DNA of 64,000 nt from Eledone cirrhosa (Eukaryota), in NCBI GenBank assembly GCA_964016885.1, contig OZ024740.1, positions 413,726,001-413,790,000 of the forward strand, given 5' to 3'. This document shows, piece after piece, positions 1,099-64,000 of the stretch. The stretch's first letter is position 1, and every line of letters begins with the position of its first letter. Below the pieces are notes generated by a model. That model made no database searches and was not told the origin of the DNA. It was given only the letters and a program-made list of their open reading frames with translations. Made by a program: the position numbers and the translations under genes.

Positions 1099-1160
<62 letters not shown>

Positions 1161-1211
1161 TAATAAAAATATTGAATAAAAACAAAGAAATAGTTCCTTA
1201 TATTAAAAAAT

Positions 1212-1342
1212 TCATCATTTTACGATCGTTTCTATGATATATATGTGTGAGTTGGTATGTATATCATATGTAAAATTTTTACAAACGATCAGAGGGAATA
1301 TACATACCTACACATATATATGCTGTCTTCAGAAATAATGAT
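1212..1342 (-). ncRNA. Type I hammerhead-like ribozyme with long stem II (family A)
   Basis: ATCATTATTT-CTGAAGA..long ATATATGTG/CACATATAT stem..GAAAC-GATC-GTA-AAATGATGA. Confidence 0.7.
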
Positions 1343-2095
1343 ATTTGTTTATTGAAAAAAACCAACAAAGATTTAATATAATAGGTCTGTTTGGGAACAG
1401 GTTTTGAATTGACCAATAGAAAGGTAGTAAGTGGTCAAGATGGTAGAATAGTAGTAATGGAACTTTAATTTAGGGGTAGAGGAAGGCAGATTTCAGTTTT
1501 GAATGGAAAGAGTATAATGAATGAAAAGATTATTTTGGGGATGAAAATAGGTCAAGTCGGTAAATGGTACACGAAAATTTGAAGTTATAAAAGAATAATG
1601 CTAATGTAAATATCTAAGGAAAATAAAATTTTACGATAAATGTGTTAGTGAAAAATATCAATCTTATTTAAAACATAAGGAATTTACATCTATAAAAAGA
1701 AAATAAATTAATTAAATTGATAGGTATATTTATATTGATAAATTTATATTAATTCATATAGATATGATAAATAAGAGTTAGATGTAATTGAAGAATGCTG
1801 TTAAAAACGAAGGGAAAATAAAAAAAAAATTATTATTATTATTATTATTATTATTGGGAGGGGGGGGGGTAAATTTATTAGTGAGAAATAACAAATTTAT
1901 ATAGATTATAAGGAATATAGATTCATAACCTGAAATTAAAATAGTTTATATGTATACTTATTGGTATAAATTTTAGGAAAAGATAGCTGTAAAAGGGAAA
2001 TAAAATTATGCAGTTCATTAGTAGTAGAATATTAATTATAGGTTAACTAATTAAAAAAAAGTGTTATTATAATAATTTGTAAACTGTATATTAAT

Positions 2096-4642
2096 TAGGT
2101 TTATAATATTTAAACGTTTTTCTCAATTTATGATTACATGATATAATTAATTCCTGTCGCTTATTTAATAGGATATCCTTAGATTTCATTATTTCAAAAA
2201 GTTCCTGGGAACATAATGTACATTCATATCTATTATTTTGATAAGGGGTGGCCCTTTTGAGCACACTCCAGGTCAGGTTATAATCTATATTCCTTTTTCT
2301 ATAATTATTAATTATTTCAGCTAAGGATGTTGTATTAGCTAATGCGGCATTTTTAAAACTGTTTGTGGGTATTAAATCTTACTTTAAATTGGTTAGAAGT
2401 AGCACCTATATATGAATAAGTTGAGTCCTTAGTGTTAATTTTACATTTATATACTATGTTATTAATAAGGCAATTTCCTTTTAATGGGCAATTTGCTTTG
2501 TTTCTACAGTTAGAACCTTTCGTGAATGCTGTATCAGAGGAGATAGTCAAATTAGGTGTGGAATTTTCACGACTTGTTGTATGTGAATGAGATGGTGGTT
2601 TGCTGTGGTTTATTTTAGTATTATGGTTAGTTTGATGTATTGGTGGTATATTCATGGGTTTTTTTACATTTATATGCATTATAGGCACTTATATTTTGTT
2701 GTATATTTTTGGTTGTTGAGTAGGAGAATTTAACTATTGATCTATTTAAAATTTGATGGTATTTATGGTTTGGCGGGAAGTTTTTCTCTAGGATAGTAAA
2801 AAAATATTTTAGGTATATTATCTTTAATTTGTAGATTAAATGGAGCATTATACCAAGTAACTCGTCTATTACGGTTTCGATGTTGTTTATTATTTTTATA
2901 GGATGTATCCTGATGTTTATTAAGAGAATTGGTATTAGTGATTTTATTACACATATTTTTAGTTAGATTCATTGATTTAGGTGTTTTAGCCTGTTTATTA
3001 GGAATTTTGTTATTAACATATATTGCAGTATTAGGAGGAATGGTTTTTTGAAAGTTACTATATTGTATATTAGAAGAGTTAGAGAAATTAAGTTTTATGT
3101 TGGTATTTTGGGGTATAGTGTGAGTGGCATTTAGGTGTGTATATTTCATTTGGTGTTTGTTGGTAATATTGGGTTGTATGTTTGTAGTGTTATTGGTACA
3201 AGGTATATATACTAATTTGTTTTTGTGGCCGCTTCTAGCTAAAGCTTCGTTATAAAAGGTCGCATTTTTATCAAATACATCCTGGTTAGACGAAAGGTTA
3301 GAAATTCTGAGTGAGATATTATATGCTAGGTTTTTAAGGATAGATTTAGGGTGATTAGATTGTGAGTGTATGTAATGTAAGTTTTGGTTAGGTTTATGGT
3401 AAGGTTGGTAGATACCCGTAGATAAGTCTAATGTTATATCAAGGAAATTAACTACTTTACTTGTGTTTATAAATGTAATATCGAGACTATAATAGTCTTT
3501 GAGGAAAGTTCTAATAAGTTTTTTTATTTTTTTCAATTTCTGATAGGCTAAGGTTATTGGAAAGAAGAAGACAGTCGTCACGATATAAACCACCTTTAAG
3601 GTGGGGGAAAAGAAGCATTTATGTTAAATAGAAGAAAGAGGCCCACAACATCGGTAATTTGGGCAGAATCACTAGAGCACATAGTAATGTCGAATAGATT
3701 ACTATATGTGTTTCTGGTCCAGTATTCTTTCTGAAATTCCAGTAGTGTTTGTCTAGCATGTGTGACAATATTAATGTCATCCATAGTTAAGTTTGATCTA
3801 TTTTTGGCAAATATCAAGGCTTTGTTCAGGAGTATAGGTGATATAGAGGAATAATAAGCATCTATATCGAATTGTAGAAATGAAGCAGAAGATTTATTTC
3901 TAATATTAGTAAACCAGTTAATTACCTGGGATGTGTTTTCCCAGAGTGGTAAATTAACATGTTTTCTTAATTGTGGGATGACTCTATCTAAAATTGTTTT
4001 ACTAATGATGCCAATGTCAGATTTGGAAGGGCATATAAGCCTTACAGAAGGATTAGAGTTAAAATTAGATTTGTGATCTTTCAGGTTAAAATGTGGTTTT
4101 TTCAGTGCCAAAGGTTCAGTTCTATCTTCAATATTAAGTCTATTTACTATGTTGTGTGTTTTGTTGTTGATGTTGGTAAGTACCGCATTGCTTGTTTTTT
4201 TATAATTTTTCCTGAGTTCTTTATATATGAACTCATTGTAATTATCAATATCCATGTGATACAGATTTCCAGTTTTGTCAGAATGGACATGGATTTTGTT
4301 AGATTTTTTTAGATCCAATAGGGTAGAATCAAGATCCTTTTTAAAATTAGATTTATATTTCTTAAATTTGAGGTGTTTGATTAAATTAAAAAGGTCTTTC
4401 TCGAAGTTTTCAAGCAAGGAGTTGTGTGGTGGGTTTTTATATGTAGTGAAATCAGATAAATATTTCTTATCAGTACATTTTGTTTTTTTATCGAAGTGGT
4501 AGGCCCTCCATCTGACCCTTTTGATGAATTGGTTGGTTTTTTGTATCATAAGAAGTAAGAATTGATCCTTAGAAGGTATTGGTATATTCTTTAAAGAAGT
4601 TCCCAAGTATTGCTTTTCCATTGTGATATGGATAATGGACAT
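2096..4642 (-). pseudogene. Frameshifted PLE RT-GIY-YIG polyprotein (family A)
   Basis: Colinear with the near-intact family B protein (61054-63515). Broken by small indels, several in homopolymer runs. Confidence 0.88.
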
Positions 4643-4869
4643 GAAAAGGAGCTCAACTATATATATAGAGGGAGTTATAAAATTATATATATATATACAA
4701 AAATATGAATACCTTCATAAAATTAAGAGCAAAGTATGTAGATAAATCTAACAAAATGTACGGTAGTGTCCAATCCGTATGAAGAACTCAATGTAATCCG
4801 AATATCATGAAAAGAGAAGATGTATTCAAAATGTTTTTAGATGAAAAACACAGGAAAACAGAGTCAATA

Positions 4870-6871
4870 CATTATTATTCCTCTATATCACCTATACTCC
4901 TGAACAAAGCCTTGATATTTGCCAAAAATAGATCAAACTTAACTATGGATGACATTAATATTATCACACATGCTAGACAAACACTACTGGAATTTCAGAA
5001 AGAATACTGGACCAGAAACACATATAGTAATCTATTCGACATTACTATGGGCTCTAGTGATTCTGCCCAAATTACCGATGTTGTGGGCCTCTTTCTTCTA
5101 TTTAACATAAATGCTTCTTTTCCCCACCTTAAAGGTGGTTTATATCGTGACGACTGTCTTCTTCTTTCCAATAACCTTAGCCTATCAGAAATTGAAAAAA
5201 ATAAAAAAACTTATTAGAACTTTCCTCAAAGACTATTATAGTCTCGATATTACATTTATAAACACAAGTAAAGTAGTTAATTTCCTTGATATAACATTAG
5301 ACTTATCTACGGGTATCTACCAACCTTACCATAAACCTAACCAAAACTTACATTACATACACTCACAATCTAATCACCCTAAATCTATCCTTAAAAACCT
5401 AGCATATAATATCTCACTCAGAATTTCTAACCTTTCGTCTAACCAGGATGTATTTGATAAAAATGCGACCTTTTATAACGAAGCTTTAGCTAGAAGCGGC
5501 CACAAAAACAAATTAGTATATATACCTTGTACCAATAACACTACAAACATACAACCCAATATTACCAACAAACACCAAATGAAATATACACACCTAAATG
5601 CCACTCACACTATACCCCAAAATACCAACATAAAACTTAATTTCTCTAACTCTTCTAATATACAATATAGTAACTTTCAAAAAACCATTCCTCCTAATAC
5701 TGCAATATATGTTAATAACAAAATTCCTAATAAACAGGCTAAAACACCTAAATCAATGAATCTAACTAAAAATATGTGTAATAAAATCACTAATACCAAT
5801 TCTCTTAATAAACATCAGGATACATCCTATAAAAATAATAAACAACATCGAAACCGTAATAGACGAGTTACTTGGTATAATGCTCCATTTAATCTACAAA
5901 TTAAAGATAATATACCTAAAATATCTTTTACCATCCTAGAGAAAAACTTCCCGCCAAACCATAAAAACCATCAAATTTTAAATAGATCAATAGTTAAATT
6001 CTCCTACTCAACAACCAAAAATATACAACAAAATATAAGTGCCTATAATGCATATAAATGTAAAAAGAACCATGAATATACCACCAATACATCAAACTAA
6101 CCATAATACTAAAATAAACCACAGCAAACCACCATCTCATTCACATACAACAAGTCGTGAAAATTCCACACCTAATTTGACTATCTCCTCTGATACAGCA
6201 TTCACGAAAGGTTCTAACTGTAGAAACAAAGCAAATTGCCCATTAAAAGGAAATTGCCTTATTAATAACATAGTATATAAATGTAAAATTAACACTAAGG
6301 ACTCAACTTATTCATATATAGGAGCTACTTCTAACCAATTTAAAGTAAGATTTAATACCCACAAACACAGTTTTAAAAATGCTGCATTAGCTAATACAAC
6401 ATCCTTAGCTGAAATAATTAATAATTATAGAAAAAGGAATATAAATTATAACCTGACCTGGAGTGTGCTCAAAAGGGCCACCCCTTATCAAAATAATAGA
6501 TATGAATGTAGATTATTTTCCCAGGAACTTTTTGAAATAATGAAATCTAAGGATATCCTATTAAATAAGCGACAGGAATTAATTATATCATGTAATCATA
6601 AATTGAGAAAAACTTTTAAATATTATAAACCTAATTAATATACACTTTACAAATTATTATAATAACACTTTTTTTTAATTAGTTAACCTATAATTAATAT
6701 TCTACTACTAATGAACTGCATAATTTTATTTCCCTTTTACAGCTATCTTTTCCTAAAATTTATACCAATAAGTATACATATAAACTATTTTAATTTCAGG
6801 TTATGAATCTATATTCCTTATAATCTATATAAATTTGTTATTTCTCACTAATAAATTTACCCCACCCTCCC

Positions 6872-6904
<33 letters not shown>

Positions 6905-7718
6905 TTTTTTTTTATTTTCCCTTCGTTTTTAACAGCATTCTTCAATTACATCTAACTCTTATTTATCATATCTATATGAATTAATATAAATTTATCAATA
7001 TAAATATACCTATCAATTTAATTAATTTATTTTCTTTTTATAGATGTAAATTCCTTATGTTTTAAATAAGATTGATATTTTTCACTAACACATTTATCGT
7101 AAAATGTTATTCTCCTTAGATATTTACATTAGCATTATTCTTTTATAACTTCAAATTTTCGTGTACCTTTTAGCGACTTGACCTATTTTCATCCCCAAAA
7201 TAATCTTTTCATTCATTATACTCTTTCCATTCAAAACTGAAATCTGCCTTCCTCTACCCCTAAATTAAAGTTCCATTACTACTATTCTAGCATCTTGACC
7301 ACTTACTACCTTTCTATTGGTCAATTCAAAAAGTGTTCCCAAACAGACCTATTATATTAAATCTTTGTTGGTTTTTTTCAATAAACAAATATCATTATTT
7401 CTGAAGACAGTATATATATGTGTAGGTATGTATATTCCCTCTGATAGTTTGTAAACATTTTACATAGATCTATATGATATATATACCAACACACATATAT
7501 ATATCATAGAAACGATCGTAAAATGATGAATTTTTTAATATAAGGAACTGTTTCTTTGTTTTTATTCATTATTTTTATTAATTTATCTTGACTCTGTTTT
7601 CCTGTGTTTTTCATCGAAAAAAACTTTTGGATACATCTTCTCTTTTCATGATATTCGGATTACATTGAGCTCTTCATACGGATTGGACACTACCGTACAT
7701 TTTGGTAGATTTATCTAC

Positions 7719-7720
<2 letters not shown>
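4870..7720 (+). mobile_element. Naiad-type PLE family A, 5'-truncated arm with complete 3' tail
   Basis: ORFs 4807-5217 (N-terminus chimeric; GGLYRDD), 5111-6100 and 6039-6638 (GIY-YIG, LLNKRQEL..CNH). About 1.1-kb 3'UTR ends at GATTTATCTACA, followed by (TA)n. Confidence 0.93.
7391..7529 (+). ncRNA. Type I hammerhead-like ribozyme with long stem II (family A)
   Basis: CTGAAGA at 7401 and GAAACGATCGTA at 7509-7520. Stem I pairs TCATTATTT with AAATGATGA. Confidence 0.72.
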
Positions 7721-7750
<30 letters not shown>

Positions 7751-7779: not shown

Positions 7780-11240
<3,461 letters not shown>

Positions 11241-11263: not shown

Positions 11264-11773
11264 AGTGACGAAACATAAGTCAATTGCATGAACTCATAAT
11301 CCTATATTTACTGCTATATATATTTCGATGATAGCCATTCAAAGGCTATGACCTCATCAGTTAGTTAGTCAATTCTTAGATATGCAAACGCTGTGTTTAT
11401 AGTGTTGATAGTTTTAGAGCCTTGGGACATATGTATATACATATATATTGGGAGGGTCATATGAGCACATGTACCTGATGAATTTCACTTCAATTTCCGG
11501 TTGGTTGATTAGTTTGATAACCAGATGATTGTTTTTATATTGTCAAAGCTGTTTCGTCACACAATCTGTGACCTCTACAGTGACTAGAGTTTCATTTTGT
11601 GTCTCTCCTTTGTTCTGTCCTACTCCATCTTGATTTTGTGCGTTGTGTGTTGTGTGCTTAGTTTGCATATGCGTTAACTCCGGGTATGTGTGTGTATTCT
11701 TATTTATTTATGTGTTTATTTACTTGTTACTAGCTGGTTGTTTGTTTTATCTGTCTGAGTTGAAAACGAAGCA
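11264..11773 (-). repeat. ~510-bp composite segment, copy 2
   Basis: Near-identical direct repeat of 591-1098. Confidence 0.8.
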
Positions 11774-12126: not shown

Positions 12127-12130
<4 letters not shown>

Positions 12131-13298
12131 GATAAATCTACCAAGAGTTTACGGTAGTGTCCAATCCGTATGAAGAACTCAATGTATTCCGGATATCATG
12201 GAAAGAAGAGATGTAATGAAAAACCACTTTCGGTGAAAGATAAACGGTATACAGAGTCAAGATAAAATATTAAACAAATAATGAATAAACAATTCCTTAT
12301 ATTAAACAAAAAAAGTTCATTATTTAACGATCCTTTCTAGGATATATATGTGTTATAATTGGTATGCATATTCAACAGATCTATGTACAAAATTATACAA
12401 AATTATACAAATTATCAAGATTAAATATACATACCAAACACATATATACGCCGTCTTCAGAAATAATGAAGTATATTTATTGATAATAACAACAATTCAA
12501 AATTTCAGTTCAAAATTGACCAATGAAAACACAAAGGGTTAAATGCAGTTCGGTGTGTGTATATACATGTAAAACCCCCACACATATTTTACAAAAATGT
12601 ATGTATAATTTGTATACGCATACTAAAAGGATGGATGCAAATACAAAATTTCAAGGTTAATGTCTCTGTGAGCTTACAATGCGCAGATAAGATGCGCATT
12701 GATACTTATGAAATCAAGTATATAAATATATTTTTTCATACTCACACATATCAGTACAATCACACATACACGCGCGTATATGCATAAATATACACATAAC
12801 CAAGAACATACAAACACACACACACCCCCACTCACATTTATATATGTGGATATAAAATCATAATCACATGGATATTAATTCACTCACATAAAACACTGGC
12901 ACACACATTTCTAGATCAAGATACAGAAATTAGGTGGGAGGGGGGGGGGGGGAGGGGTCAGTATTCAACTGTCTGAGCAAACTGCCTAATATAAATGTAT
13001 CTATAAATTAAGAAAAATAAAAAAATAAAACAATAAAATATAATAAATATAATATAATATATATACACATACAGATATATACACATACATACATGTACGC
13101 ACACATAGAAATATTTACGCATACACACATACACACATACATATACAGTCATACACACACATACACTTACACGAACATACACATACACATATATAAAGAT
13201 ATATATATACACACACACACACACACGCAACACATACACACATACACATATATATAAAAATAAACAATAAAGATATATACCTATATATATATACACAC

Positions 13299-13329
<31 letters not shown>

Positions 13330-13763
13330 TATACACACACATACATCTAAATATACATACACATACATACACACACACATGTACATACATGTACATACAT
13401 ATACGCACATCGATATACATATATATATATATACATACATATATATACACACACATAGACATGTAGATACATACACACACAACTTACATACACACATATA
13501 TATATACACGTATATTCATACATAGAATTAGATATATAATCATACATACATATGCACTTACTTATACTCATATATACAAATACATACGCATCTATATATG
13601 CATATATACATAAAAAATCACTACAACCTCACCTAACTCAGACATACAAATAAAAATAAAAATAATAATAAAAAGGCATATGTATATACATACACACACG
13701 CATTAATAGAGATATATATATATAGACACATACATACACATATATATATATATATATATACAC

Positions 13764-13797
<34 letters not shown>

Positions 13798-13908
13798 ACT
13801 CATACATATATATATATATATATATATACATATACACATAGATATCCACACACTCATACCACCATAAATACACATACAAACACCCACATATATATATATA
13901 TACACACG

Positions 13909-13940
<32 letters not shown>

Positions 13941-14065
13941 TAAAAAACAGACATGCACATATATATATATATATTAATTACACTTATATATACACATATT
14001 ATATACACATACACAACCTCACTTATACACACATACACATAAGTTATATTATAATAATAAAGAAT

Positions 14066-14103
<38 letters not shown>

Positions 14104-14203
14104 CATATATATACATACATACAAACACATACATACATACATATAAACATATACATACATAAATACACACATACTAATAAAGACATATATTCACACATAG
14201 ACA

Positions 14204-14251
<48 letters not shown>

Positions 14252-15393
14252 TATATACATATATACACACACACATATACACAGACACATATACACACTC
14301 ACATATATATATGTGTGTGTGCGCACACACACATATATACACACACACACACAAATACACATAAACACATACATATGCATACATGCACACACACACACAC
14401 ATATATCACATAGATACGAAGATAAACATATAAATAGAGAGACATACATATATATACAACACACATACACACACATACATACACACGCATATACATATAC
14501 ATATATATATACATATATATATATTCCTATATATACATGCATACACATATATACACATATATACACATACATACACATATACGTACACACATTCACATAC
14601 ACATACATATATAATGCATATATACACATATATACATACATATACACACTCATATATACACACGCAATCTTACATTCATATTTGCATGCGCATATATGTA
14701 TTTTTATATTTAGATATAAATACCCAAACCTATATAGACACCTACCTACATATATATTCATACATAGACGCTTACAAATACAGATGATAATAGTATGGGG
14801 GAAAGGGGGGGTTTGGAGAAGGGGATCAAAGTAAATATATGTTTCAAGAAACATAGAAAATTTTCCGTATTTTTATCCAATGTATGTTCTTACATATTTT
14901 CAGTGTTAGGAAATACGACAAACAAGAACTAAGGCAAAATCTATGCATCTCAAAATAAATAAGTATATCATTAATCATATGTTAACTAAACCAAAGATAG
15001 TCAACATATTGATTTCTAAGGTGTAAATTAGTTAGGTTTATAATATTTGAAGCAGAATTTTGAAGTCAAACAGTAGTAGATTATTAATTACAGTATAACT
15101 AAATTAAAGTTAATAACGTTATGGTATCAATATTAGGAAATGAATTTAGTAATAGGGAAAAAAAACACAAATAAAAATAAAATAAAGTATTACATCGGTA
15201 GTAGAATATAAATTATATGTTAACTAAATTAAAAATTATATATTTATTTCAATAGTATATGTTAATTAGGTATACAATACATAAAGCAGATACTGTATTT
15301 CATCAATAGCATAATATAATTATATGCAAATAGAAATCAAAGTTAATACGCATACATATACATATACATACACATACACATATACATACATAT

Positions 15394-15446
<53 letters not shown>

Positions 15447-16499
15447 TACATACATACACATACACATACACACACACACATACACATACACATATACATA
15501 TACATATCTTTTTCAAAAAATTGCATAGAATATATTAACTAGGTATATATCCAAAACACATCCCATTCTATGATTACATGACATTCTGCAATTCGTCTGT
15601 ATAAGGATAACTAATTTTAAGCAAATTAAAATTAAAATTTTTAGGTTGATTAAAACTAAAACCAAATAATAAATATATTTCTAAAATGTATATTAATTAG
15701 GTCTATAATACTAAAAATTATTTCTCTGTCATTGGATACACGATATTATTTTGTTATATTTTATCTGTAAAAGAGTTATAATAAAATGTTTAAATAAATT
15801 AAAATTAATCTATAAATTAAATTACTAAGTATATATTAGTAATATTTAAAGGTTTTTCACAATTTATGATTACATAATATTTTATATTCTCATCTGTAAT
15901 AAAATATTAATTAAATTAAATTTATAGGTTAACTAACATTTAAATTAAATTAATTTCTAAAATAATGTTATTAATTAGGTTTATAATATTTAAATGTTTT
16001 TTTTAGTTTATGATTACACGATATAATTAATTCCTGTCGTTTATTTAATAAGATATCCTTAGACTTCATTATTTCAAATAGTTCTTGGGAACATAATCTA
16101 CATTCATTTCTATTATTTTGATAAGGGGTGGCTCTTTTGAGCACACTCCAGGTCAAATCATATTTTATATTCTTATTTTTATAACTATTGATTTTTTCTG
16201 CTAGAGATGTTGTATTAGCCAGTGCGGCATTTTTAAAACTATGCTTGTGGGTATTAAACCTTGTCTTAAAATTGTTAGAGGTAGCTCCTATATATGAGCA
16301 AATAGAATCTTTAGTTTTAACATTACATTTATAGACTATGTTGTTAACAAGACAATTCCCTTTTAATGGGCAGTTTGCTTTGTTTCTACAGTTACATCCT
16401 TTCGTTAATTCTGTATTTGAGGAGATATTATGGTTAATTTGATGTACTGGTGGTATACTTATGGTTTTCTTACATTTATATGCATTATATGCACTTATA
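12127..16499 (-). mobile_element. Naiad-type PLE family B, 5'-truncated copy (endonuclease C-terminus, long low-complexity 3'UTR, hammerhead, tail)
   Basis: 15971-16499 matches 61054-61580. UTR anchors are colinear with 48243-51511 and 55222-61053. Terminus TGTAGATAAATCTACC. Confidence 0.9.
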
Positions 16500-17419
16500 T
16501 ATATATATATATATATATATAGATAGATAATTTAATATATCTACTAACATAAGCGCACAGATGTACGCTAATGCCAGCAAATACACAGGTTATGTCATAG
16601 TACCTAGGTGGTTCAATGCAGGAGGATGCAGAACAATAATATAACAGACGTAAAATAAGAAAATTTTCTTTTTTTTATTTTAACTTACTTACTTAAGTAA
16701 GTTAAAATTTAAAAAAAAAAATTTTTTTTTTTTAATTTTCTTATTTTACGTCTGTTATATATATATATATATATATACATATATATACATACATATATAT
16801 ATATACGCACACACATATATATATATATACACTCATACATAAAATGTATGGGTTTGCCTATATACGTATGGGTGTGTTTCAAGAGGATTCAATGAAATGT
16901 CAATGAGAGAAATTTCACTTAAAGTGTAAGCTAAAATTAGTTGCTGAATGTTGAAAATAGAAAGTTATGAAATGTATGCAGACGTAAAGTTAAATTAAAA
17001 TCATTGAATATTAAAATATGAAGAAAATTGTTCTATTTGGCTCAGAAGTAGTTGATATCATTCAACGGAAAGGAGTATACAACTTAACTGACGTACTATC
17101 ACTTGGTATTCATCCAGTATAAGTATCTACTGCAGAGAAAGTAATTATAAACAGCAAACCAATGTAAGATGTGGTAGATGATTTTTTTTTTTTTTGCATT
17201 AGATGTGTGTAGCATATGAAGTTTTAAACAAATGAGATTTATCCAAAATATTGATCAAGTATTGGCAATTGAATGATTGTAACTTGAAGTTCAAATGTCG
17301 TCCAGTTAATACCACTTTTTCAACTTCGGACAATGAGAATATAAATGATATGTATATAACTGGATAGATTTAGTAACCGTTTTTCCTTATAAAGTGTGAG
17401 GTCCATCTCTAAATAAGTA

Positions 17420-22320: not shown

Positions 22321-22323
<3 letters not shown>

Positions 22324-22512
22324 CAAAGGAATTGTGGTAATGAACCAGATGGACCATAATGCACCAGAGTACTCAATACTTAGGGTAGTAGAGTGGGAAT
22401 TAGGAAAAAGTATGAAACAGACGGCAGAGCTCAAGCCGTTTAGACGGCTATTTCTGAGTCCAGAAATAGCCGTCGAAACGGCTTCAGCTCTGCCGTCGGG
22501 GTCATACTTTTT

Positions 22513-22516
<4 letters not shown>
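22321..22516 (-). mobile_element. Mini hairpin+tail insertion (family also at 27629-27821, 37020-37150 and 41172-41370)
   Basis: Tail AACAAAGGAA..GTACTCAATAC..GTAGTAGAGTGG, then hairpin GACGGCAGAGCTCAAGCCGTT..AACGGCTTCAGCTCTGCCGTC. Confidence 0.8.
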
Positions 22517-26646: not shown

Positions 26647-26655
26647 CTTGTGTAT

Positions 26656-27050
26656 AATGGTGGCTATGATGCTTCCATAGGCGGTACGCCAAAATTAGCA
26701 CTCAATATTCAACAGAGTAGAGTGTGTATAGTATAAAAATCGAAAAATCAGTGATGCAACTGGACTCAATTTATTGCGTGTTACAATTGTTTCGCCGGAA
26801 GGTAGCTCGAGACATGGTCCCTGTGTGTATCTGGCTGATTCTACGGCTGCAAGTTCTTTCAGACACGGGTAGTTCGTTCGGAGCAAATTTTATCACTGTG
26901 ATAAAATACCCGTGTCTGAAGGAACCTGCAGCCGTAGAATCAGCCAGATCCATACAGGGACCATGTCTTGAGCTACCTGCCGGCGAAACAATTGTAACAC
27001 GCAATAAATTGAGTCCAGATGCATCACTGATTTTTCGTGTTTTTATTCTA
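26656..27050 (-). mobile_element. Mini PLE-like insertion with inverted hammerhead-like arms plus tail
   Basis: Arms ~26728-26871 and ~26907-27050. CGTGT-CTGAAGGA..GAAAC-AATT-GTA-ACACG, then AATAAA. Related to 29716-30082. Confidence 0.8.
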
Positions 27051-27078
27051 TATATATATACATACATATATACTGCAG

Positions 27079-27155
<77 letters not shown>

Positions 27156-27530
27156 GGTAGTGTAACTTGGAGTTACTGTAGGTTCACCCTGGGGAGCACT
27201 CGATGTTTATGTTCCCTTCTGTGTCGAGGTGTAGAGCTATACAGAGTGTATTATATTGAAAAGATAACAGGCCGATTGGTTACTCCTTCGTTACATTTAT
27301 TGGTTGGTGACACGCGATTCGCCACTGATCCGCTCAAGGTTCGATCTGTATCGATCGTACCCGACTCTGTCATTTGCAGCTTGACGTCGGGTTCCGTCGA
27401 GCTGCAGATTACAGAGTCGGGTAAGATCGATACAGATCGAACCTTGAGCTGATCAATGGCGAAACGCGCATCACCAACCAATAAATGTAACGAAGGAGTA
27501 ACCAATCGTCCTTGTTATCTTTTCAATATA
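27156..27530 (-). mobile_element. Mini PLE-like insertion: ~135-bp hairpin arms plus tail
   Basis: Arms 27252-27387 and 27396-27530. Contains GAAACGCGC/GT, related to the hammerhead at 46921-47013. Tail 27156-27250. Confidence 0.8.
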
Positions 27531-27628: not shown

Positions 27629-27631
<3 letters not shown>

Positions 27632-27818
27632 CGAAGGAAATGTGGTAAGGAACCAGGTGGACCATAACGCACCAAAGTACTCAATACTTGAGGTAGTAGA
27701 GTGGGTAATAGGAACCAGTAAGACCCCGACAGCTGAGCTCAAGCCGTTTCGACGGCTAATTATGTCCAGAATTAGCCGTCGAAACGGCTTGAGCTCAGCT
27801 GTCGGGGTCTTACTGGTT

Positions 27819-27821
<3 letters not shown>
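27629..27821 (-). mobile_element. Mini hairpin+tail insertion (22321 family)
   Basis: ~52-bp perfect arms AGGAACCAGTAAGACCCCG..AATT / AATT..CGGGGTCTTACTGGTTCCT. Confidence 0.85.
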
Positions 27822-27856
<35 letters not shown>

Positions 27857-27857: not shown

Positions 27858-28572
27858 CGAAAATGTTCGCTCTACATGGCTGAATACAATAAATGTAATC
27901 TAAGTTTTTCGAATATTAATAATAACATTCGATTCGTTTGCAATTATGCAAACAAGCCTCAATTTCATATCCCTGTCAGAAGAATTAACCCTTCATTATT
28001 GCTCTTGTGTTGGCATGTGAACAGAACTGCAGACACTAATGTTTCTGGGTACCACCCTTCATCAGTACAGCTCAGTGTTCACCTGCCAAACTGTCAGAGC
28101 TAGTGAAAATATATGCTATTTTCAAAAATACACAGTGACAGATCGGCCTGATTTGCATATTAGCAGACTGGCTGATCAGTTAGATCTGCATATTAGCAGA
28201 TCCACTGATCAGCCATATTTGCATATCAGCAGACTGGCCAGTCAGTTTCCTGTATAAGAGCGACAAATGGCCGGCTTTGCCAAATTCAAATAAAAAAGAA
28301 AGTTTTCGCTCTATATGGCTGAATCCAATAAATGTAATCTGAGTTTTTCGAATATTAATAATATCATTCGATTCGTTTGCAATTATGCAAACAAGCCTCA
28401 ATTTTATAGACATGTCAGTAGAATGAACCCTTCATTCTTGCTCTTGTGTTGTCAAAGCCGGCCATTTATGGCTCGTATGTCATTCTACTGACATGGCTAT
28501 AAAATTGAAGCTTGTTTGCATAATTGCAAACGAATCGAATGTTATTACTAATATTCGAAAAACTCATATTAC

Positions 28573-28578
<6 letters not shown>
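27857..28578 (-). mobile_element. Retrozyme-like non-coding tandem element (~439-bp unit) with inverted arm
   Basis: CGCTCTA(C/T)ATGGCTGAAT at 27868 and 28307. Hammerhead at 28027-28070. Inverted segment ~28452-28578. Confidence 0.72.
28027..28070 (-). ncRNA. Minimal type I hammerhead ribozyme
   Basis: CTGTA-CTGATGA-AGGGTGGTACCCA-GAAAC-ATTAGT-GTC-TGCAG. Confidence 0.78.
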
Positions 28579-29650: not shown

Positions 29651-29715
29651 ATTATTATGATATATATACCTATATATATATATGTGTGTGTGTGTGTATG
29701 TGTGTGTATGTGTGT

Positions 29716-30078
29716 CTGATGGTAGCTAAGATGCTTCCATAGGCGGTATGCCGGTTGAGCACTCTATGTTCTTACAGAATATATGAAACGAAAAATCAGT
29801 GATGCATCTGAACTCAATTTATTGTGTGTTACAATTGTTTCGCCGGCGAAGAGCTTTAGACTCGATCATTGTGTGGATCTGTTTGATTCCGGATCCGCTG
29901 GTTCGACGGGCACATCTAATGATTACGGAGCAAATTCTCCGAAATCATTGAGGTGTGTCCGTCAAACCTGCGGATCCAGAGTCAGACAGATCCACACAAT
30001 GAACGTGTCTCGAGCTGTCCGTCGGCGAAACAATTGTAACACGCAATAAATTGAGTTCAGATGCATCACTGATTTTTC

Positions 30079-30082
<4 letters not shown>
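29716..30082 (-). mobile_element. Mini PLE-like insertion related to 26656-27050
   Basis: Same tail (GATGCTTCCATAGGCGGTA) and arms carrying GAAACAATTGTAACACGCAATAAA. Confidence 0.8.
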
Positions 30083-30140
<58 letters not shown>

Positions 30141-48242: not shown

Positions 48243-48246
<4 letters not shown>

Positions 48247-49210
48247 GATAAATCTACCAAGAGTTTACGGTAGTGTCCAATCCGTATGAAGAACTCAATG
48301 TATTCCGGATATCATGGAAAGAAGAGATGTAATGAAAAATCACTTTCGGTGAAAGATAAACGGTATACAGAGTCAAGATAAAATATTAAACAAATAATGA
48401 ATAAAACAATGAAACAGTTCCTTATATTAAACAAAAAAAGTTCATTATTTAACGATCGTTTCTAGGATATATATGTGTTAGAATTGGCATGCATATTCAA
48501 CAGATCTATGTACAAAATTATACAAAATTATACAAACTATCAAGATTAAATATACATACCAACACATATATACGCCGTCTTCAGAAATAATGAAATATAT
48601 TTATTGATAATAACAACAATTCAAAATTTCAGGTCCGTTTGGGAACAAAATTGACCAATGAAAATACAAAAGGTTTTATGCAGTTCGGTGTGTGTATATA
48701 CATGTAACTACCCTTACACATATTTTACAAAAATGTATGCTCAACTTGTATACGCATACCAAAAGGATGGATGCAAATACAAAATTTCAAGGTTAATGTC
48801 TCTGTAAGTTTACAATGCACAGATAAGATGCGTATAGACACATAAATATGAAATAAGTGTATACACATATTCTCATACTCACACATATCCGTACAATCAC
48901 ACACACGCGCGCGTATATGCATAAACATACACATAATTACGAACATACAAACACACACACACCCCCACTCACATATATATATGTGGATATAATATCATAA
49001 GCACATGGATATTAATTCACTCACATAAACACTACCACACACATTTAGATCAAGATACAGAAATTAGGTGGGAGGGGGGGAGAGGTCAGTATTCAACGGT
49101 TTGGGCAGACTGCTTATTATAGATGTATCTATAAACTAAGAAAATAAAAAATGAAAATTAAAAAGGAAAGAAAAGAAAAAGAAAAAAGAAAAAGGAAATA
49201 TATCAAGAAA

Positions 49211-55173: not shown

Positions 55174-55228
<55 letters not shown>

Positions 55229-56051
55229 TAAAAAAATAATGAATAAAACAATGAAACAGTTCCTTATATTAAACAAAAAAAGTTCATTATTTAACGATCG
55301 TTTCTAGGATATATATGTGTTAGAATTGGCATGCATATTCAACAGATCTATGTACAAAATTATACAAAATTATACAAACTATCAAGATTAAATATACATA
55401 CCAAACACACATATATGCCGTCTTCAGAAATAATGAAATATATTTATTGATAATAACAACAATTCAAAATTTCAGGTCCGTTTGGGAACGGAGTTCAAAT
55501 TGACCAATGAAAATACAAAAAATTTTATGCAGTTTGGTGTGTGTATATACATGTAATTAACTTCGTACACATATTTATACAAAGATATATGCTCACATGC
55601 ATACACATGCCAAAAAGATGTATGCAAATACAAAAATTCAAGGCTAATGTCTCTGTAAGTTTATAATCCACAGATAAAATGCGTATAGACACATAAATAT
55701 GAAATAAATGTATACACATATTCACATACTCACACATATCCGTACACTCACACACACACGCGCGTATATGCATAAACATACACATAATTACGAACATACA
55801 TACACACACACACCCCCACACACATATATATGTGGATATAGTATTATCATAAGCATATGGATATTAATGCACGCACATAAACACTGCCACACACATTTAG
55901 ATCAAGATACAGAAATTAGGTGGGAGGGGGGGAGAGGTCAGTATTCAACGGTTTCGGCAGACTGCTTATTTATAGATGTATCTATAAACTTAGAAATAAA
56001 AAGAAAAGAAAAGAAAAAGAAAAAGAAAAAAGAAAAAAGAAATATATCAAG

Positions 56052-56113
<62 letters not shown>

Positions 56114-56341
56114 CACACATACAACACACACACACACACATATATAAACGTATACATATATATATACACACACATATACACACATACATATATATATATA
56201 CACACATATATACACATATATACACACACACATATATACACACACATATATATATATACACGCACATATACATACACATACATACTTATATACATACAGA
56301 CATACACATACATACATATATATACACACATATACAAACAG

Positions 56342-56372
<31 letters not shown>

Positions 56373-56604
56373 TACATACACACACATACATATTCATACA
56401 TAGACATAGATATATATTCACACACACATACGCACTTACATATACGCATATATACAAATACATACACATCCATATATCCGTATATACATACAAACATCAC
56501 TACACTCTCACACAACTCAGACATACAAAGAAAAAGGTATATACATATACACATATACACACATAAATAGAGATACATATACACATACATATACATATAC
56601 ATAT

Positions 56605-56669
<65 letters not shown>

Positions 56670-56842
56670 TGTACACACACATACACATACATACATACAC
56701 ATATACATACATACATATATAGTCACACACACACACACACCTACACATACATACACATACACATATATAAAGATATATATACACACACATACATACACAC
56801 ACATATATAATAAATATATATATATATATATATATATACATA

Positions 56843-57100
56843 TGTAGGAGGTGAGTTTTATTGTAGTACAATAAAGCAATGCAGATATCGGATAAGAAGC
56901 ACTCTACAGTTTGTGGGACTGGAGTATGCATAATATAAGATCAAAAGATGGTTAAAGGAGTTCAATATATTTTATTATGCGCATTTCAAAAACAAACATC
57001 ATCAAACAATAATATTTGTGTTTTCATCAGATAAAACAGGAGAACATGATATGAAGGCTAAAAAAACACTTGTTGATAGTGCAGTTTTAAATCAACATAT
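56843..57100 (-). mobile_element. Nested mini PLE 3' end with hammerhead (56970-57036) and tail
   Basis: TTTTAT-CTGATGA-AAACACAAATATTATT..GATGATGTTTGTTTTT-GAAA-TGCGCA-TA-ATAAAA. Absent from the other family B copies. Confidence 0.78.
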
Positions 57101-57634
57101 CATACACATATACATTTACATATCCATATATACATATATATATACATATACATACACATATACATACATACATACACATACATACATACATATACACACA
57201 TATATATACACACATACACACATACATACATACACACACACATACATACACACACATACATACTCATACATAGACATAGATATATATTCACACACACATA
57301 CGCACTTACATATACGCATATATACAAATACATACGCATCCATATATGCGTATATACATACAAACACCACTACACTCTCACACAACTCAGACATACAAAG
57401 AAAAAAGTATATACATATACATATATACACACATAAATAGAGATACATATATACATATATATATATATACATACATATATATATATATCCACACACACAT
57501 ACAACCATAAACACACATACAAACACATACATACACACATATATACATATATATACACACACACACAAAAACACACATACACATATACATTTACATATCC
57601 ATATATACATATACACACCCTCACATATATATAT

Positions 57635-59460
57635 AACTTTGAATAACTTTGAAATGTTTTGGCCAGTATTGGCCCAGGCCATGTCTAACTTAATAGCACC
57701 ACCTGGCGAAGTCTTTCAATTCAGGATTTGGGCACCATGGCCCATTCGAGAAGAGAATTACTGTTTGCGGAGACATATCCGGGTGTGGGTGGTTTGTCCG
57801 GGATTACTTGGAGGAATTTGTCCAAAGACTTCTTGAATTTTGAGTGGTCAGTTTCTGTTTTGGCGTGTCCTGGTGTGATGTTGAAGAGAGCAGGGCCGAT
57901 TGAGGTGAAATAATTGTGCCGTATTGTTGTTATGAGTTGCGATTTAGATTTTTGAATGGGACGGATAGCACGGGGCCCAAGCCTTGGGTGTATCTTGAAG
58001 GCGATGCCAACATCATTTGGGCAGTGATCATGGAACATTTTCCACATCATGCAGATAATATAACGCTCACGGCGACGTTGGAGTGAGTAAAGTTTCAGGT
58101 TTTCCAATCGACCCCAGTAGTCAAGGTCTGACATGCCATCTATCTTTTTCGTGATTGCCCTTTGAGGAGCTTCAAGTTTCATGATACTTTGTTTCGTGTG
58201 GGGAGACCACAGTGGACAACAGTATTCAAGGTGTGGTCGGGCGAAAGTAGAGAAGAGAAGGATAATGGTGCGGGAATCTCTCGACTGGAAGGTTCTGAGG
58301 ATCCAGGAACACATTCTGCGGGCCATGTCAACTTTGCTGCTTATATGCGTGGTCCAGCTTATGTTGCTGTCCACGGTTACTCCCAAGTCTCTGATGTTGT
58401 TAGATGCCACGAGAGTTTCCCCGGAGGGAAGGGAGTACGGGAGTTTCAGAGCATCCTCTTTTCCAAAGTGGATCAGTTCGAATTTGTCCTCGTTCAGTAA
58501 CATGTTGTTCTTTTCTGCCCATTGGGTAACAGCCAGTAGGTCTGACTGAAGGCTTATCCGGTCATCCACGCCATTGATGACCTTTTGGAGCTTGGAATCA
58601 TCAGCGAAAATTTTAATGTTGCTGTGTTTGATGATGTCAGTGATGTCATTAATATAGATGATGAAGAGAAGTGGGCCCAACACAGTGCCTTGTGGGACTC
58701 CACTACTGACTTTGGCTGGGCTTGATTTGACTCCCTCAACTACAACATGTTGGGTTCTGTTTGACAGGAAGCTCTTGATCCACTGCAGCAGCTTTCCAGT
58801 GACACCAATATTGGACAGCTTTCTCAGTAGAATGTTATGATCAACCCTGTCAAAGGCCTTGCTGAAATCAAGGTAGATAACATCAGTGTTGGAACCCTCT
58901 CCCAAGGCTCTCAAAATGTCATCAAAGTGATGCAGTAGTTGCGTCAGGCAATCCCTTCCATTACGGAATCCATGCTGGTTGGAGTTCAGCATATTGTTAC
59001 TCTCAAGGAAGTGGGTCATTCGCGATCTCACCACTCGCTCAAATACCTTAATGATATGAGAGGTGAGTGAGATTGGACGGTAATTCACGGCAAGGGATTT
59101 GTTTCCCTTTTTGAAAACTGGGACAACAGACTGGGATAGAAGGTTTTCTGGCACATATCCAGCATCTAGTGAGTTCCGCCACAGATTGGCAAGAGGAGAA
59201 GCAAGTTGGTGTTGACACGCCTTCAGGACACAAGCAGGGAACCTATCGGGACCTACTGCTGAATTATGCTTGATTTCCTTTATTGCCGCCAAGACATCAG
59301 GGGCGCCAAACGTTATGTCCGATAAGGTGTAATGGGGAGTAACATCGCCGATACAGCCCAGATCGGCCATATCAGGATTGCTGAAAACAGAGCAGTATTG
59401 TTTCTGCAGTATCTCACCCATGGTTTTAGCATTGTCTTGAAGAGTGCCATTTTCATCAAT
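57635..59460 (-). mobile_element. 5'-truncated CR1-group LINE nested in the family B 3'UTR
   Basis: Open ORF2 RT region, short 3'UTR with a TGGCC/GGCCA stem and a (TTCAAAGTTA)2 tail. Empty site visible at ~50535-50550. Confidence 0.9.
57721..59421 (-). CDS. LINE ORF2 reverse transcriptase (C-terminal 566 aa, endonuclease missing)
   Basis: NYRPISLTS, QHGFR, LDFSKAFDRV, SGVPQGTVLGPLLF, FADDSK, RPHLEYC..WSP, LYSLQRRR. Confidence 0.9.
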   Translation of the reverse strand: MGEILQKQYCSVFSNPDMADLGCIGDVTPHYTLSDITFGAPDVLAAIKEIKHNSAVGPDRFPACVLKACQHQLASPLANLWRNSLDAGYVPENLLSQSVVPVFKKGNKSLAVNYRPISLTSHIIKVFERVVRSRMTHFLESNNMLNSNQHGFRNGRDCLTQLLHHFDDILRALGEGSNTDVIYLDFSKAFDRVDHNILLRKLSNIGVTGKLLQWIKSFLSNRTQHVVVEGVKSSPAKVSSGVPQGTVLGPLLFIIYINDITDIIKHSNIKIFADDSKLQKVINGVDDRISLQSDLLAVTQWAEKNNMLLNEDKFELIHFGKEDALKLPYSLPSGETLVASNNIRDLGVTVDSNISWTTHISSKVDMARRMCSWILRTFQSRDSRTIILLFSTFARPHLEYCCPLWSPHTKQSIMKLEAPQRAITKKIDGMSDLDYWGRLENLKLYSLQRRRERYIICMMWKMFHDHCPNDVGIAFKIHPRLGPRAIRPIQKSKSQLITTIRHNYFTSIGPALFNITPGHAKTETDHSKFKKSLDKFLQVIPDKPPTPGYVSANSNSLLEWAMVPKS

Positions 59461-59777
59461 TTATATATACACATAAGTTATATTATAATAATAAATAATA
59501 TATATATATACACATACAAATATATATATACATAGACATACATATATATATACACACACACACACACTCACATATATATGTGCGCACACGTACACATATA
59601 CACATACACACATATACACATAAACATATACATGTGCATACATGTACATACACACATATACCCACATAGATACGAAGATACACATATATATAGAGAGACA
59701 TACATATACATACACATATATACACACACATACATACACACGTATATATACACACACATACACGCCCACACACATAC

Positions 59778-59809
<32 letters not shown>

Positions 59810-61053
59810 ATACATATATATATATACATACATACACATACATATACATACAATCATACATCCTTATTTGCATGCACATATATGTATTTTTATACTCAGA
59901 TATAAACACCCAAACATGTATACACCTACCTACATATATATTCATACATACACGCTTACAAATACAGATAATAATAGTATGGGGGAAAGGGGGGGTGGAG
60001 AAGGGGATTATAGTAAATATATGTTTCAAGAAACATAGAATATTAATCTGTATTTGGATCTCAATATATGTTTTTACATAGTTTCAGTGTTAGGAAATGC
60101 AAGAAATAAGGCAAAATTATCCATTTCAATATAAGTATACCATTAATTATAGGTTAACTAAACTAAAGATAGTTAACATATTGATTTCTAAGGTGTAAAT
60201 TAGTTAGGTTTATAATATTTGAAGCAGAATTTTGAAGTTAAATAGTAGTAGAGTATTAATTATAGTATAACTAAATTAAAATTATTAACGTTATGGTATC
60301 AATATTAGGAAATGAATTTAGTAATAGGGAAAAAACAAATAAAGTATTACATCGGTAGTAGAATATAAATTATAGGTTAACTAAATTAAAAATTATATAT
60401 TAATTTCTATAGTATATGTTAATTAGGTATATAATAAATAAAACAGATATTGTATTTTATCAATAGCAGAATATAATTATATGCAAACAGAAATCAAAAT
60501 TAATACATATACATATACATATATATACATATATATATATACACATATATATACATACATACACATACATATACATACATACATATACATATTTTTTCAA
60601 AAATTGCAAAGAATATATTAACTAGGTATACATCCAAAACACATCCCATTCTATGATTACATGACACTCTGCAATCCGTCTGTAATAGGATACTAATTTT
60701 AAGCCAATTAAATTAAATTTTTAGGTTGACTAAATTTAAAACCAAATTATAAATATATTTCTAAAATGTATATTAATTAGGTCTATAATACTAAAAATTA
60801 TTTCTCTGTCATTGAATACACGATATTTTGTTATATTTTATCTGTAAAGGAATTTTAATAAAGGGTTAAATAAATTAAAATTAATCTATAAATTAAATTA
60901 CTAAGTATATATTAGTAATATTTAAAGGTTTTTCACAATTTATGATTACACAATATTTTATATTCTCATCTGTAGTAGAATTTTAATTAAATTAAATTTA
61001 TAGGTTAACTAACATTTAAATTAAATTATATATTAATTTCTAAAATAATGTTA

Positions 61054-63515
61054 TTAATTAGGTTTATAATATTTAAATGTTTTTTTTAGTTTATGATTAC
61101 ACGATATAATTAATTCCTGTCGTTTATTTAATAGGATATCCTTAGATTTCATTATTTCAAATAGTTCTTGGGAACATAATCTACATTCATTTCTATTATT
61201 TTGATAAGGGGTGGCTCTTTTGAGCACACTCCAGGTCAAATCATATTCTATATTCTTATTTTTATAACTATTGATTTTTTCTGCTAGAGATGTTGTATTA
61301 GCCAGTGCGGCATTTTTAAAACTATGCTTGTGGGTATTAAACCTTGTCTTAAAATTGTTAGAAGTAGCTCCTATATATGAGCAAATAGAATCTTTAGTTT
61401 TAACACTACATTTATAGACTATGTTGTTAACAAGACAATTCCCTTTTAATGGGCAGTTTGCTTTGTTTCTACAGTTACAACCTTTCGTTAATTCTGTATT
61501 TGAGGAGATATTGTGGTTAGTTTGATGTATTGGTGGTATACTTATGGTTTTCTTACATTTATATGCATTATAGGCACTTATATTTTGTTTTATGTTATTT
61601 GTTGTTGAGTATGAGAATTTAACTGTAGACCTATTTAAGATTTGATGGTATTTGTGGTTTGGCGGGAAGTTTTTCTCTAGGATATAAAAAATTTTTTTAG
61701 CAATATTATCCTTAATTTGTAAATTAAATGGAGCATTATACCAAGTAACCCGTCTATTAGGGTTTCTATGTTGTTTATTATTTTTATTATTTTTATAGGT
61801 TGTATCGTGATGTTTACTAGGAGGATTAATGTTAATGATCTCACCACAACCATTTTTAGTTATATTTGTAGATTTAGGTGTTTTATCTTTTTTATTAGGA
61901 GTTTTATTATTAATATTTATTAGAGTTGTATGATGAGTAGTTTTTTGAGAGTTACTATATTTTATATTAGAAGATTTGGTATTTTGGGGTATAGTGTGGG
62001 TGGCATTTAGGTGTGTACTTTTCATTTGGTGTTTGTTGGTAATATTAGGTTGTATGTTTTTAGTATTTTTAGTAGAAGGTATATATTCTAATCTATTTTT
62101 GTGGCCACTTCTATCTAGAGCTTCGTTATAGAAGGTCGCATTTTTATCAAATACATCTTGGTTAGAAGAAAGGTTAGAAATTCTAAGTGATATATTATAT
62201 GCAAGGTTTTTAAGGATAGATTTAGGGTGATTAGATTGTGAGTGTATGTAATGTAAGTTTTGGTTTGGTTTATGGTAAGGTTGGTAGATACCCGTAGCTA
62301 AATCTAAAGTTATATCTAGGAAATTTACTACTTTACTTGTTTTTTCAAAAGTAATATGAAGATTATAATAGTCTTTAAGGAAAGTTCTAATATGTTTTTT
62401 GTTTTTTTCTATTTCTGAAAGGCTAAGGTTGTTAGAAAGAAGAAGACAGTCATCACGATATAAACCACCTTTAAGGTGGGGAAAGGAGGCATTTATGTTG
62501 AAAAGGAGAAAGAGGCCCACAAGATCAGTAATTTGGGCGGAATCGCTTGAACCCATAGTAATATCAAATAGATTACTATATGTGTTTCTGGTCCAGTATT
62601 CATTCTGAAATTCAATAAGTGTTAGTCTAGCATGTGTAATAATATTAATGTCATCCAAAGTTAAGTTAGATCTATTTTTAGCAAATATCAATGCTTTGTT
62701 CAGGAGTATAGGTGATATAGAAGAATAGTAATTATCTATATCAAATTGTAGAAATGAAGCAGAAGATTTACATCTAATATTTTTAAACCAGTTAATTACC
62801 TGGGAGGTGTTTTCCCAGAGTGGTAAAATAACGTGTTTTCTTATTTGTGGGATGACTCTATCCAAAATTTTTTTGCTAATTATTCCAATATCTGATTTGG
62901 AGGGACATATAAGTCTTATAGAAGGATTTGAGTTAAAGTTTGATTTATGATCCTTCAGGTTGAAGTGTGGTCTTTTCAATGCCAAAGGTTCAGTTCTATC
63001 TTCAATGTTTAGTTTTTTTACTATGTTGTGTGTTTTGTTGTTGATGTTGGTGAGTGACGCATTATTGGATTTTTTATAATTTTTCCTGAGTTCTTTATAT
63101 ATGAACTCATTATAATGTTCAATATCCATTGATACAAGTTACCAGTTTTGTCCGAGTGGACATGGATTTTTTTAGACTTTTTTAGGTCCAATAGGGTAGA
63201 ATCAAGGTCCTTTTGAAAGACGGATTTATACTTTTTAAATTTGAGGTGTTTAATTAAATTAAAAAGGTCTTTCTCAAAGTCTTCAAGTAAAGAGTTGTGT
63301 GGTGGATTCTTGTAAGTATTGAAATCATACATATATTTCCGATCTGCATGTTTAGATTTTTTATCGAAGTGGTAGGCCCTCCATCTAACCCTTCTGATAA
63401 AATTATTAGTTTTTTGAATCATAAGGAGTAAGAAGTCATCCTTAGAAGGTATTGGTATGTTCTTTAAAGAGGTTCCCAAATATTGTTTTTCCATTGTGAT
63501 ATGGATGATGGACAA
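61054..63515 (-). pseudogene. Naiad-type RT-GIY-YIG polyprotein, intact except for one 1-bp frameshift near 63130
   Basis: The 164-aa and 691-aa ORFs join (GNLY[H]MDI in family A). Motifs GGLYRDD, CNCRNKANCPLKGNCL, VYKC..YIGAT, CRLC, LLNKRQEL..CNH. Confidence 0.92.
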
Positions 63516-64000
63516 TTGAAAGAGCTCAACTAAATGTATATGGGTTTACAAAATCATACATATATATGTATATACATAAATATAAAATTAATACACACAT
63601 ACAATACAAAAATACGAATATTTCCGTGAAAATAGGAGCAAAATTATGTAGATAAATCTACCAAGAGTTTACGGTAGTGTCCAATCCGTATGAAGAACTC
63701 AATGTATTCCGGATATCATGGAAAGAAGAGATGCAATGAAAAATCACTTTCGGTGAAAGATAAACGGAATACAGAGTCAAGATAAAATATTAAAAAAATA
63801 ATGAATAAAACAATGAAACAGTTCCTTATATTAAACAAAAAAAGTTCATTATTTAACGATCGTTTCTAGGATATATATGTGTTAGAATTGGCATGCATAT
63901 TCAACAGATCTATGTACAAAATTATACAAAATTATACAAACTATCAAGATTAAATATACATACCAAACACACATATATGCCGTCTTCAGAAATAATGAAA

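Follow-up and report, generated by a model that had tools for sequence, protein, structure and literature searches.

How Penelope-like elements (PLEs) rebuild the partial tandem that they require for transcription is the question raised by one locus of Eledone cirrhosa. It lies in a window of 64,000 nucleotides (nt) on contig OZ024740.1 (positions 413,726,001 to 413,790,000). Here a Penelope-type element is inserted twice in (TA)n as two head-to-head arms, the layout usual for its family, and the left arm is almost exactly one circularly permuted unit. The first-pass annotation read this length as the possible fossil of a circular RNA that had been copied once round. For this step a paper from 2008 could see 'no obvious mechanism' (PMC2377424), and in the available text of a 2024 in vitro study ribozyme cleavage was dispensable (PMC11167929). 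A single one-turn arm does not settle the matter. The contrast between first-pass and second-pass ends in thousands of copies leads to exact predicted positions for the RNA start (7394), the cut and join (7520/7521) and the two priming sites (7586 and 7721). On balance we consider it somewhat probable that the left arm stopped where it did by chance and that the long copies of the family came from ribozyme-cut, end-rejoined RNA, most likely a circle.

A Penelope-like element with a hammerhead

The element has one open reading frame (ORF), a reverse transcriptase (RT) followed by a GIY-YIG-like endonuclease, with motifs in the order QFDI, YRDD and IVY...YIG. It shows the PLE hallmarks of a partial-tandem pseudo-long terminal repeat (pseudo-LTR), an inverted 5'-truncated partner and a tail confined to one end. 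Inverted partners of this kind, tailed on one side, are described for PLEs in the accessible parts of PMC8557442 and PMC3846280. Hydra-clade motifs are also present, namely DKT, a CxCX5C linker, and CxxC plus CxH in the endonuclease. SDKT was read from the left arm, and CNCRNKANC, CRLC and CNH from family B, a related family; the right arm has the variants SNCRNKANC and CRLF. Judged by its motifs, the element is a Penelope-like retroelement with Hydra-clade character. A Pfam search of the element returned 0 families and a search of solved structures gave no real match. The ORF of the left arm is split over several frames. Exact genome matches number 6,189 for the tail-start motif, 12,639 for the hammerhead core and 232 for the ORF start.

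The repeat contains a minimal type I hammerhead, a putative ribozyme. Its parts are CUGAAGA, GAAA, the palindromic CGAUCG and GUA; stems I and II fold, with folding z scores of -4.07 and -3.65. An Rfam search found no match for the hammerhead. Minimal PLE hammerheads are thought to work as dimers, according to the available text of PMC4209133.

The left arm aligns to the right-arm repeat from TTGACTC (4867 = 7588), and its other end is ATTTAT, ...ATTAATTTAT (1155 = 7586). The two ends are thus adjacent in the right arm, as the first-pass annotation had it, and the arm is one permuted monomer of about 3,714 nt short of only 1 nt (C7587) to 4 nt. The shortfall is a range because bases 1155-1157 are common to the element and the (TA)n flank. 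The ends of the arm had been placed correctly; in the direction of synthesis, however, it started at 1155 and stopped at 4867. The predicted cut (7520) does lie away from the arm end, 67 nt from 7588. Coordinates of these and other features are given in Table 1.

Two fixed priming sites

5' ends were mapped by anchored extension in a first set of arms, the 100 listed of 232 ORF-start matches. A replicate consisted of 76 new family B arms obtained with a second anchor (100 listed of 295 matches). The 3' ends are bimodal. Site B (7586) holds 85 of the 202 distinct anchored repeat ends and site A (7721) holds 72; a further 43 are internal and 2 lie elsewhere. ATATAT follows 63/85 B ends and TATATA follows 41/58 A ends, consistent with (TA)n targets. 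Head-to-head pairs combine an A arm with a B arm in 19/22 cases, about half of the 22 coming from tail-anchored searches that force one A end. Among the 100 listed arms, 20 have no 3' call and 2 end off-site.

The start of the left arm is the standard family priming site B. Only the stop at 4867 therefore needs explaining, one coincidence rather than two.

Within the tail, 6/11 tail stops of the first set and 2/4 of the replicate fall at a hairpin (GTAGATTTATCTAC, +111 to +128) just inside site A, which was picked post hoc.

Ends at the hammerhead start on the first and second pass

Across the family, 5' ends accumulate where the hammerhead begins, at its first base (the A in TC/ATT). Among 8,286 copies, 6,110 have the templated C before this base and 2,176 do not, about one tenth of the latter that were listed being short interspersed elements (SINEs) or point variants as judged by eye. 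An extra G occupies position -1 in 525 of these (24%), versus 90 (4%) with G at -2. Reverse transcription can add a G by copying an RNA cap, an effect for which the literature search listed no paper. This base is therefore read as the likely capped 5' end of an RNA whose ribozyme is uncut. In a local sample skewed towards short partners, with 4 SINE cases among them, 36/48 arms reaching this cap-like site stop there. Two short arms, L336 and L337, have non-standard priming in the first ORF codons and end at the cap-like site, so that they include the 5' untranslated region (UTR) and the ORF start.

The second pass gives a different picture. No stop at the cap site was found in 231 family B internal repeats genome-wide, all of which are intact upstream; the 2 exceptions beside them are not second-pass arms but short ones that end at the start of the ORF. 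Second-pass stops at this site were likewise absent from the arm sets, 0/49 in the first and 0/66 in the replicate. These sets overlap the 231, and the 66 replicate arms were scored partly by match to the list of intact repeats. If the template were linear and capped, with priming at its 3' repeat, all second-pass arms would halt here. None halted, which favours a continuous template.

Ends near the predicted cut

Ends of long arms are in excess near the predicted cut. In the first set 11 fall between -76 and -43 against 2.2 expected, in a zone picked after seeing the data. In the replicate, for which the zone was set beforehand, there are 4 against 0.67 expected (P=0.005). The excess extends over about 30 nt on the 3' side of the predicted cut; four ends (L122, L182, L374 and L376) are at most 2 nt from the cut. 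First-pass arms show little excess (6/68). The first-pass annotation had named a pile-up at the cut as a sign against its reading. An excess just 3' of the cut is seen, and a pile-up at the exact cut in family B is not.

Most arms cross the cut, as had been claimed for the cDNAs of this locus. Of the arms that enter the zone, about 120/135 continue beyond it, and only about 4 indels in 262 crossings were seen by eye, the rest being seamless. One locus, L135, carries an identical 2-nt insertion at the predicted cut in both arms, which was therefore likely present in the template.

Template of the long arms

A mechanism can be outlined from these ends. The endonuclease would break both (TA)n strands, and the two ends would prime reverse transcription at A and B. 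Transcription would start, capped, at the base that opens the hammerhead. An RNA carrying a single minimal hammerhead would stay uncut and yield run-off arms that are short and include a G copied from the cap, and RNA with two hammerheads would cut as a dimer and lose the cap. A minority of cut linear monomers would give arms ending near the cut. Most cut monomers would be joined by ligation (or bridged by a jump) and copied beyond a full turn by strand displacement, rebuilding the pseudo-LTR and producing tandem arrays with identical units. Drop-off of the enzyme would occur about once per 1,000 nt, and at this locus it would have fallen at 4867.

Copies of more than one unit cross the cut scar-free, an observation that fits both a circle and an end-to-end jump. 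In the window the family B arm, said by the first-pass annotation to exceed one unit, does so by 249 nt past site B on the second pass, with 0 substitutions in a 248-nt overlap. Since the majority of long arms traverse the cut scar-free and not one ends at the presumed cap, ligated or end-joined RNA is preferred to an uncleaved tandem. The earlier choice between a ligated circle and an uncleaved tandem RNA thus leans towards ligated or end-joined RNA, on grounds other than arm length. The circle route for PLEs is already published as a proposal (PMC4209133), comprising cleavage, ligation and more-than-unit reverse transcription for PLE tandems in the available text (Cervera and de la Pena 2014). 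The end statistics suggest independent, indirect support for it.

It is unlikely that no covalent circle exists and that RT instead primes near the 5' end of a linear RNA, runs off it where the cap or the cut ends the template, and on each arrival transfers to the corresponding 3' end of the same RNA or of another, as in LTR strand transfer. Some observations speak for it. The short ORF-start arms that halt at the cap site indicate that uncut, capped RNA extends to the ORF or further, the arms ending near the cut indicate that linear cut ends are copied, and the few indels at the cut (L014, L093 and both L135 arms) could be taken for jump scars. Transfer at the cap end, however, would have to break down for 26% or more of the first arrivals yet for 0/231 second arrivals, and about 98% of cut crossings are seamless, a figure from a single site with no control. 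Circle and seamless jump would leave almost identical DNA; the circle is put ahead of the jump because scars are rare and because retrozyme monomers are ligated in animals (PMC7229834, in the text available).

A tRNA-like SINE with 116,028 genome matches sits at the cap site in 414 copies (L041, L136, L183, L218 and L301-L335 are examples), and in 29, 14-fold fewer, at the matching 9-mer of the antisense strand. It was considered as a scar of template jumping. This reading was rejected because standalone SINE copies show the same, ordinary target duplications and because the SINE is also carried by internal repeats (5 versus 30 intact). The cap site is likely a favoured target for ordinary SINE insertion.

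Several points weigh against a cut and rejoined template. Cleavage, capping and ligation are all deduced from DNA ends. In the available text of PMC11167929, the Anolis element used uncleaved RNA in vitro, its ribozyme mutants inserted normally and its RNA-seq gave no reads ending at the cut. The 0/231 count is limited to family B. Among the first 100 copies with an extra G, about 28 are perfect palindromes by eye, in which the G may be the templated base of the partner arm. A pile-up at the exact cut is absent genome-wide in family B, with at most 1 candidate by a pattern that misses T-preceded ends, and the excess in the cut zone may come from pausing at the base of stem I. Repeat pairs within an arm do not clearly resemble each other more than they do their nearest neighbours: 23/38 were as close or closer and 8 were worse. 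Within-arm identity was set aside as a test of circle versus tandem RNA, as it does not discriminate.

A single template common to both arms of the locus is plausible. It is not proven, since the 11 rare alleles common to both arms cluster near the centre, with 10 inside the innermost 1.4 kb. The arms differ by 35 substitutions, most private to one arm, with 2 in the inner 900 nt and 16 in the outer 900 nt (P=0.001). The centre may have been evened by arm-to-arm conversion or by assembly polishing. Templates from two different subfamilies were rejected, as most differences are private to one arm; sites 1627 and 1277 are the only positions with both alleles in several copies.

A template cut by its ribozyme and rejoined is one part of a longer account. 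The ends may record the full RNA life cycle of an autonomous Penelope-like element, with a capped RNA starting at the hammerhead, a ribozyme active only as a dimer and so cutting full-length transcripts alone, a protein-coding RNA circle of 3.7-6.7 kb, its reverse transcription past one turn from the two sides of a DNA break at two different start sites, and regeneration of the pseudo-LTR in this way. We put this whole forward tentatively and hold it to be less than an even chance.

One-turn length of the left arm

If RT had made one turn round a ligated circle and halted on its own RNA:DNA hybrid, the length of the arm would record the circle. We now regard this as improbable. Of the first 100 listed arms, 31 stop before B, 2 stop at B and 67 pass it. 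The excess at exactly one unit that the first-pass annotation proposed to look for did not appear, since 67/69 arms reaching B pass it and 0/72 replicate arms stop within 2 nt of it (one, L372, stops at -3). The two arms that stop at B are the left arm studied here, the index arm, and L141, which is A-primed and therefore 1 unit + 136 nt long. Stops within 2 nt of an arm's own priming site number 1/33 for B-primed arms, the one being the index arm, and 0/21 for A-primed arms. Their own start is passed by 32/33 and 21/21, respectively.

The halt after one turn does have some support. The left arm is only 1-4 nt short of a unit, where chance would give a stop in about 0.55% of arms reaching the site. 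The 2/69 stops exceed the 0.38 expected, with P=0.057 if the index arm is included and 0.32 if it is left out. Against it, copies cut off at B are no commoner across the genome (about 23/6,189) than those cut off at a control position of the same C/TT context (about 38/7,853; Fisher P=0.37), the truncated copies being classed by eye. A nearer control 7 nt downstream of B has 7 truncations among 22 rows, with the denominator uncounted, versus about 18 in families B and C at site B. There may be a small local excess of truncation at B. Among 20 fetched B-truncated loci L141 is the only long arm and most are 136-nt tail-only arms. As a rule, the halt after one turn is largely refuted. At about 0.55% per arm and with more than 200 long arms in the genome (at least 232), one such one-turn arm is expected. 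The one-turn length of the left arm is likely chance.

The tail-only arms prompted a collision model, in which a second primer at B halts the arms. It was rejected because truncation at B is no higher than at the control site.

Uncleaved tandem RNA and misassembly

Very unlikely, too, is an origin of the long arms from uncleaved read-through RNA of genomic tandems or partial tandems, with the hammerhead irrelevant. Arrays of 2-4 units are found in about 11 of 100 listed ORF copies, uncleaved RNA was the main substrate in vitro (PMC11167929, available text), and a Drosophila study attributed pseudo-LTRs to tandem insertion (PMC2377424). A tandem RNA starting at the cap would nevertheless halt second-pass arms at the cap site, where the counts are zero in every set. 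It also leaves the second-pass excess near the cut unexplained. Linear copying cannot raise the number of units, yet the subfamilies each carry their own sequence at both repeat positions. Uncleaved tandem RNA is the worst fitting of the template accounts.

That the junction 4867/4872 is an artefact of misassembly is hardly credible, for although the arms are 99.1% identical near the centre and no bridging record was among the public contigs listed (one study), a B arm on the left, an A arm on the right, TA flanks and a short filler are the family norm and each arm has about 14 private differences.

Other features of the window

Table 1. Coordinates of features in the 64,000-nt window
Feature	Position	Strand	Basis
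(TA)n target, left side; 1155-1157 assignable to target or element	1100..1156	.	sequence
Left arm, permuted unit short of 1-4 nt; start at site B (1155-1157), stop 4867	1155..4867	-	sequence comparison
Minimal type I hammerhead, left arm; first base 1339, predicted cut after 1221	1213..1339	-	motif + folding
5' ORF part, 348 aa; RVRWR, SDKT, QFDI; frameshift near 3607	3596..4642	-	motif reading
5' UTR, after internal tail copy	4734-4643	-	sequence comparison
Internal tail copy (site B+1 to site A)	4735..4867	-	sequence comparison
Filler TACA at head-to-head junction, unlike either arm	4868..4871	.	arm comparison
Right arm, 5'-truncated within RT; start at site A (7721, end of the tail)	4872..7721	+	sequence comparison
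Linker and GIY-YIG-like endonuclease frame (SNCRNKANC, IVY...YIG, CNH)	6048..6638	+	motif reading
Hammerhead, right arm; first base 7394 (family-wide 5' pile-up, probable capped start, TC/ATT), predicted cut after 7520	7394..7529	+	motif + folding
Site B, where arms lacking the tail normally have their 3' end	7586..7588	+	end mapping
Terminal tail up to site A, then (TA)n	7588..7721	+	sequence comparison
Family B arm, related, B-primed, continues beyond window	55220..64000	-	sequence comparison

The double insertion and its neighbour are flanked by a direct repeat of 508 nt (98.8%) at 592-1098 and 11265-11772. The neighbour, at 7790-9460 (+), is a diverged and broken relative of this type of element with YRDD, CNCRNRADC and YIG-like motifs, and adjoins the right arm. 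A further Penelope-like element at 30836-36930 has inverted arms (31609-33065 versus 35613-34138, 97.9%) and an asparagine-rich insert within its ORF. Short palindromic repeats, some multi-copy and unclassified, occur at 22323-22516, 26649-27052, 27252-27530, 27631-27823, 28328-28578 and 29711-30091.

Family B insertions are also found at 12128-16500 and 48244-51702, the latter two-armed with its A end at 48244 and its B end at 51702. In the 3' UTR of the long family B copy is inserted an RT of the long interspersed element type (57721-59421, minus strand; Pfam RVT_1, E 7.8e-32). Elsewhere in the genome family B forms tandem arrays of 2-4 near-identical units with a period of about 6.5-6.9 kb, for example at G000:C1:183727001-183767000, C1:126836001-126866000 and C2:262007067-262037066. 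Neighbouring units of arrays have 0 substitutions across about 2,400 nt.

Comparison with known systems

Twin priming of L1 is similar in that priming takes place at the two target ends and yields a head-to-head inversion. It differs in that the L1 parts abut on one RNA, whereas the arms here overlap and start at two fixed internal sites.

There is a close likeness to the Hydra clade of PLEs with a C-terminal endonuclease (Craig et al. 2021). In the available text of that paper (PMC8557442) the elements likewise have RT followed by GIY-YIG, DKT for DKG, CxCX5C, and CxxC plus CxH, as well as a hammerhead, (TA)n insertion, an inverted 5'-truncated partner and a tail at one end. They differ in having RWK where RWR is found here, in units that are 'generally <3 kb' rather than 3.3-7.2 kb, and in a tail of 30-40 nt rather than 136 nt.

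The Anolis Poseidon element has been studied in vitro (Frangieh et al. 2024). As described in the accessible part of PMC11167929, two RT start sites flank the tail, targets are AT-rich, both target strands are cut and extended, and uncut RNA is copied, all of which resembles the system described here. The strands there are alike in their start site, whereas here the two arms of most pairs are primed one at A and one at B. No RNA ends were seen at the cut there, and here long arms end in excess near it.

A literature search, with subscription papers and supplements outside it, found no end statistics of this kind for PLEs and no demonstration of the circle route. The available text of PMC4209133 and of the retrozyme work (PMC7229834, bioRxiv 10.64898/2026.07.22.740005) contains no genomic end statistics and no circle of a coding PLE. 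For metazoan non-LTR retrozymes small circles were detected, and those in the accessible text of the two retrozyme papers are only non-coding RNAs of 170-400 nt. If the reading favoured here is true, the intermediate of transposition in this animal would be a protein-coding RNA circle of kilobase size.

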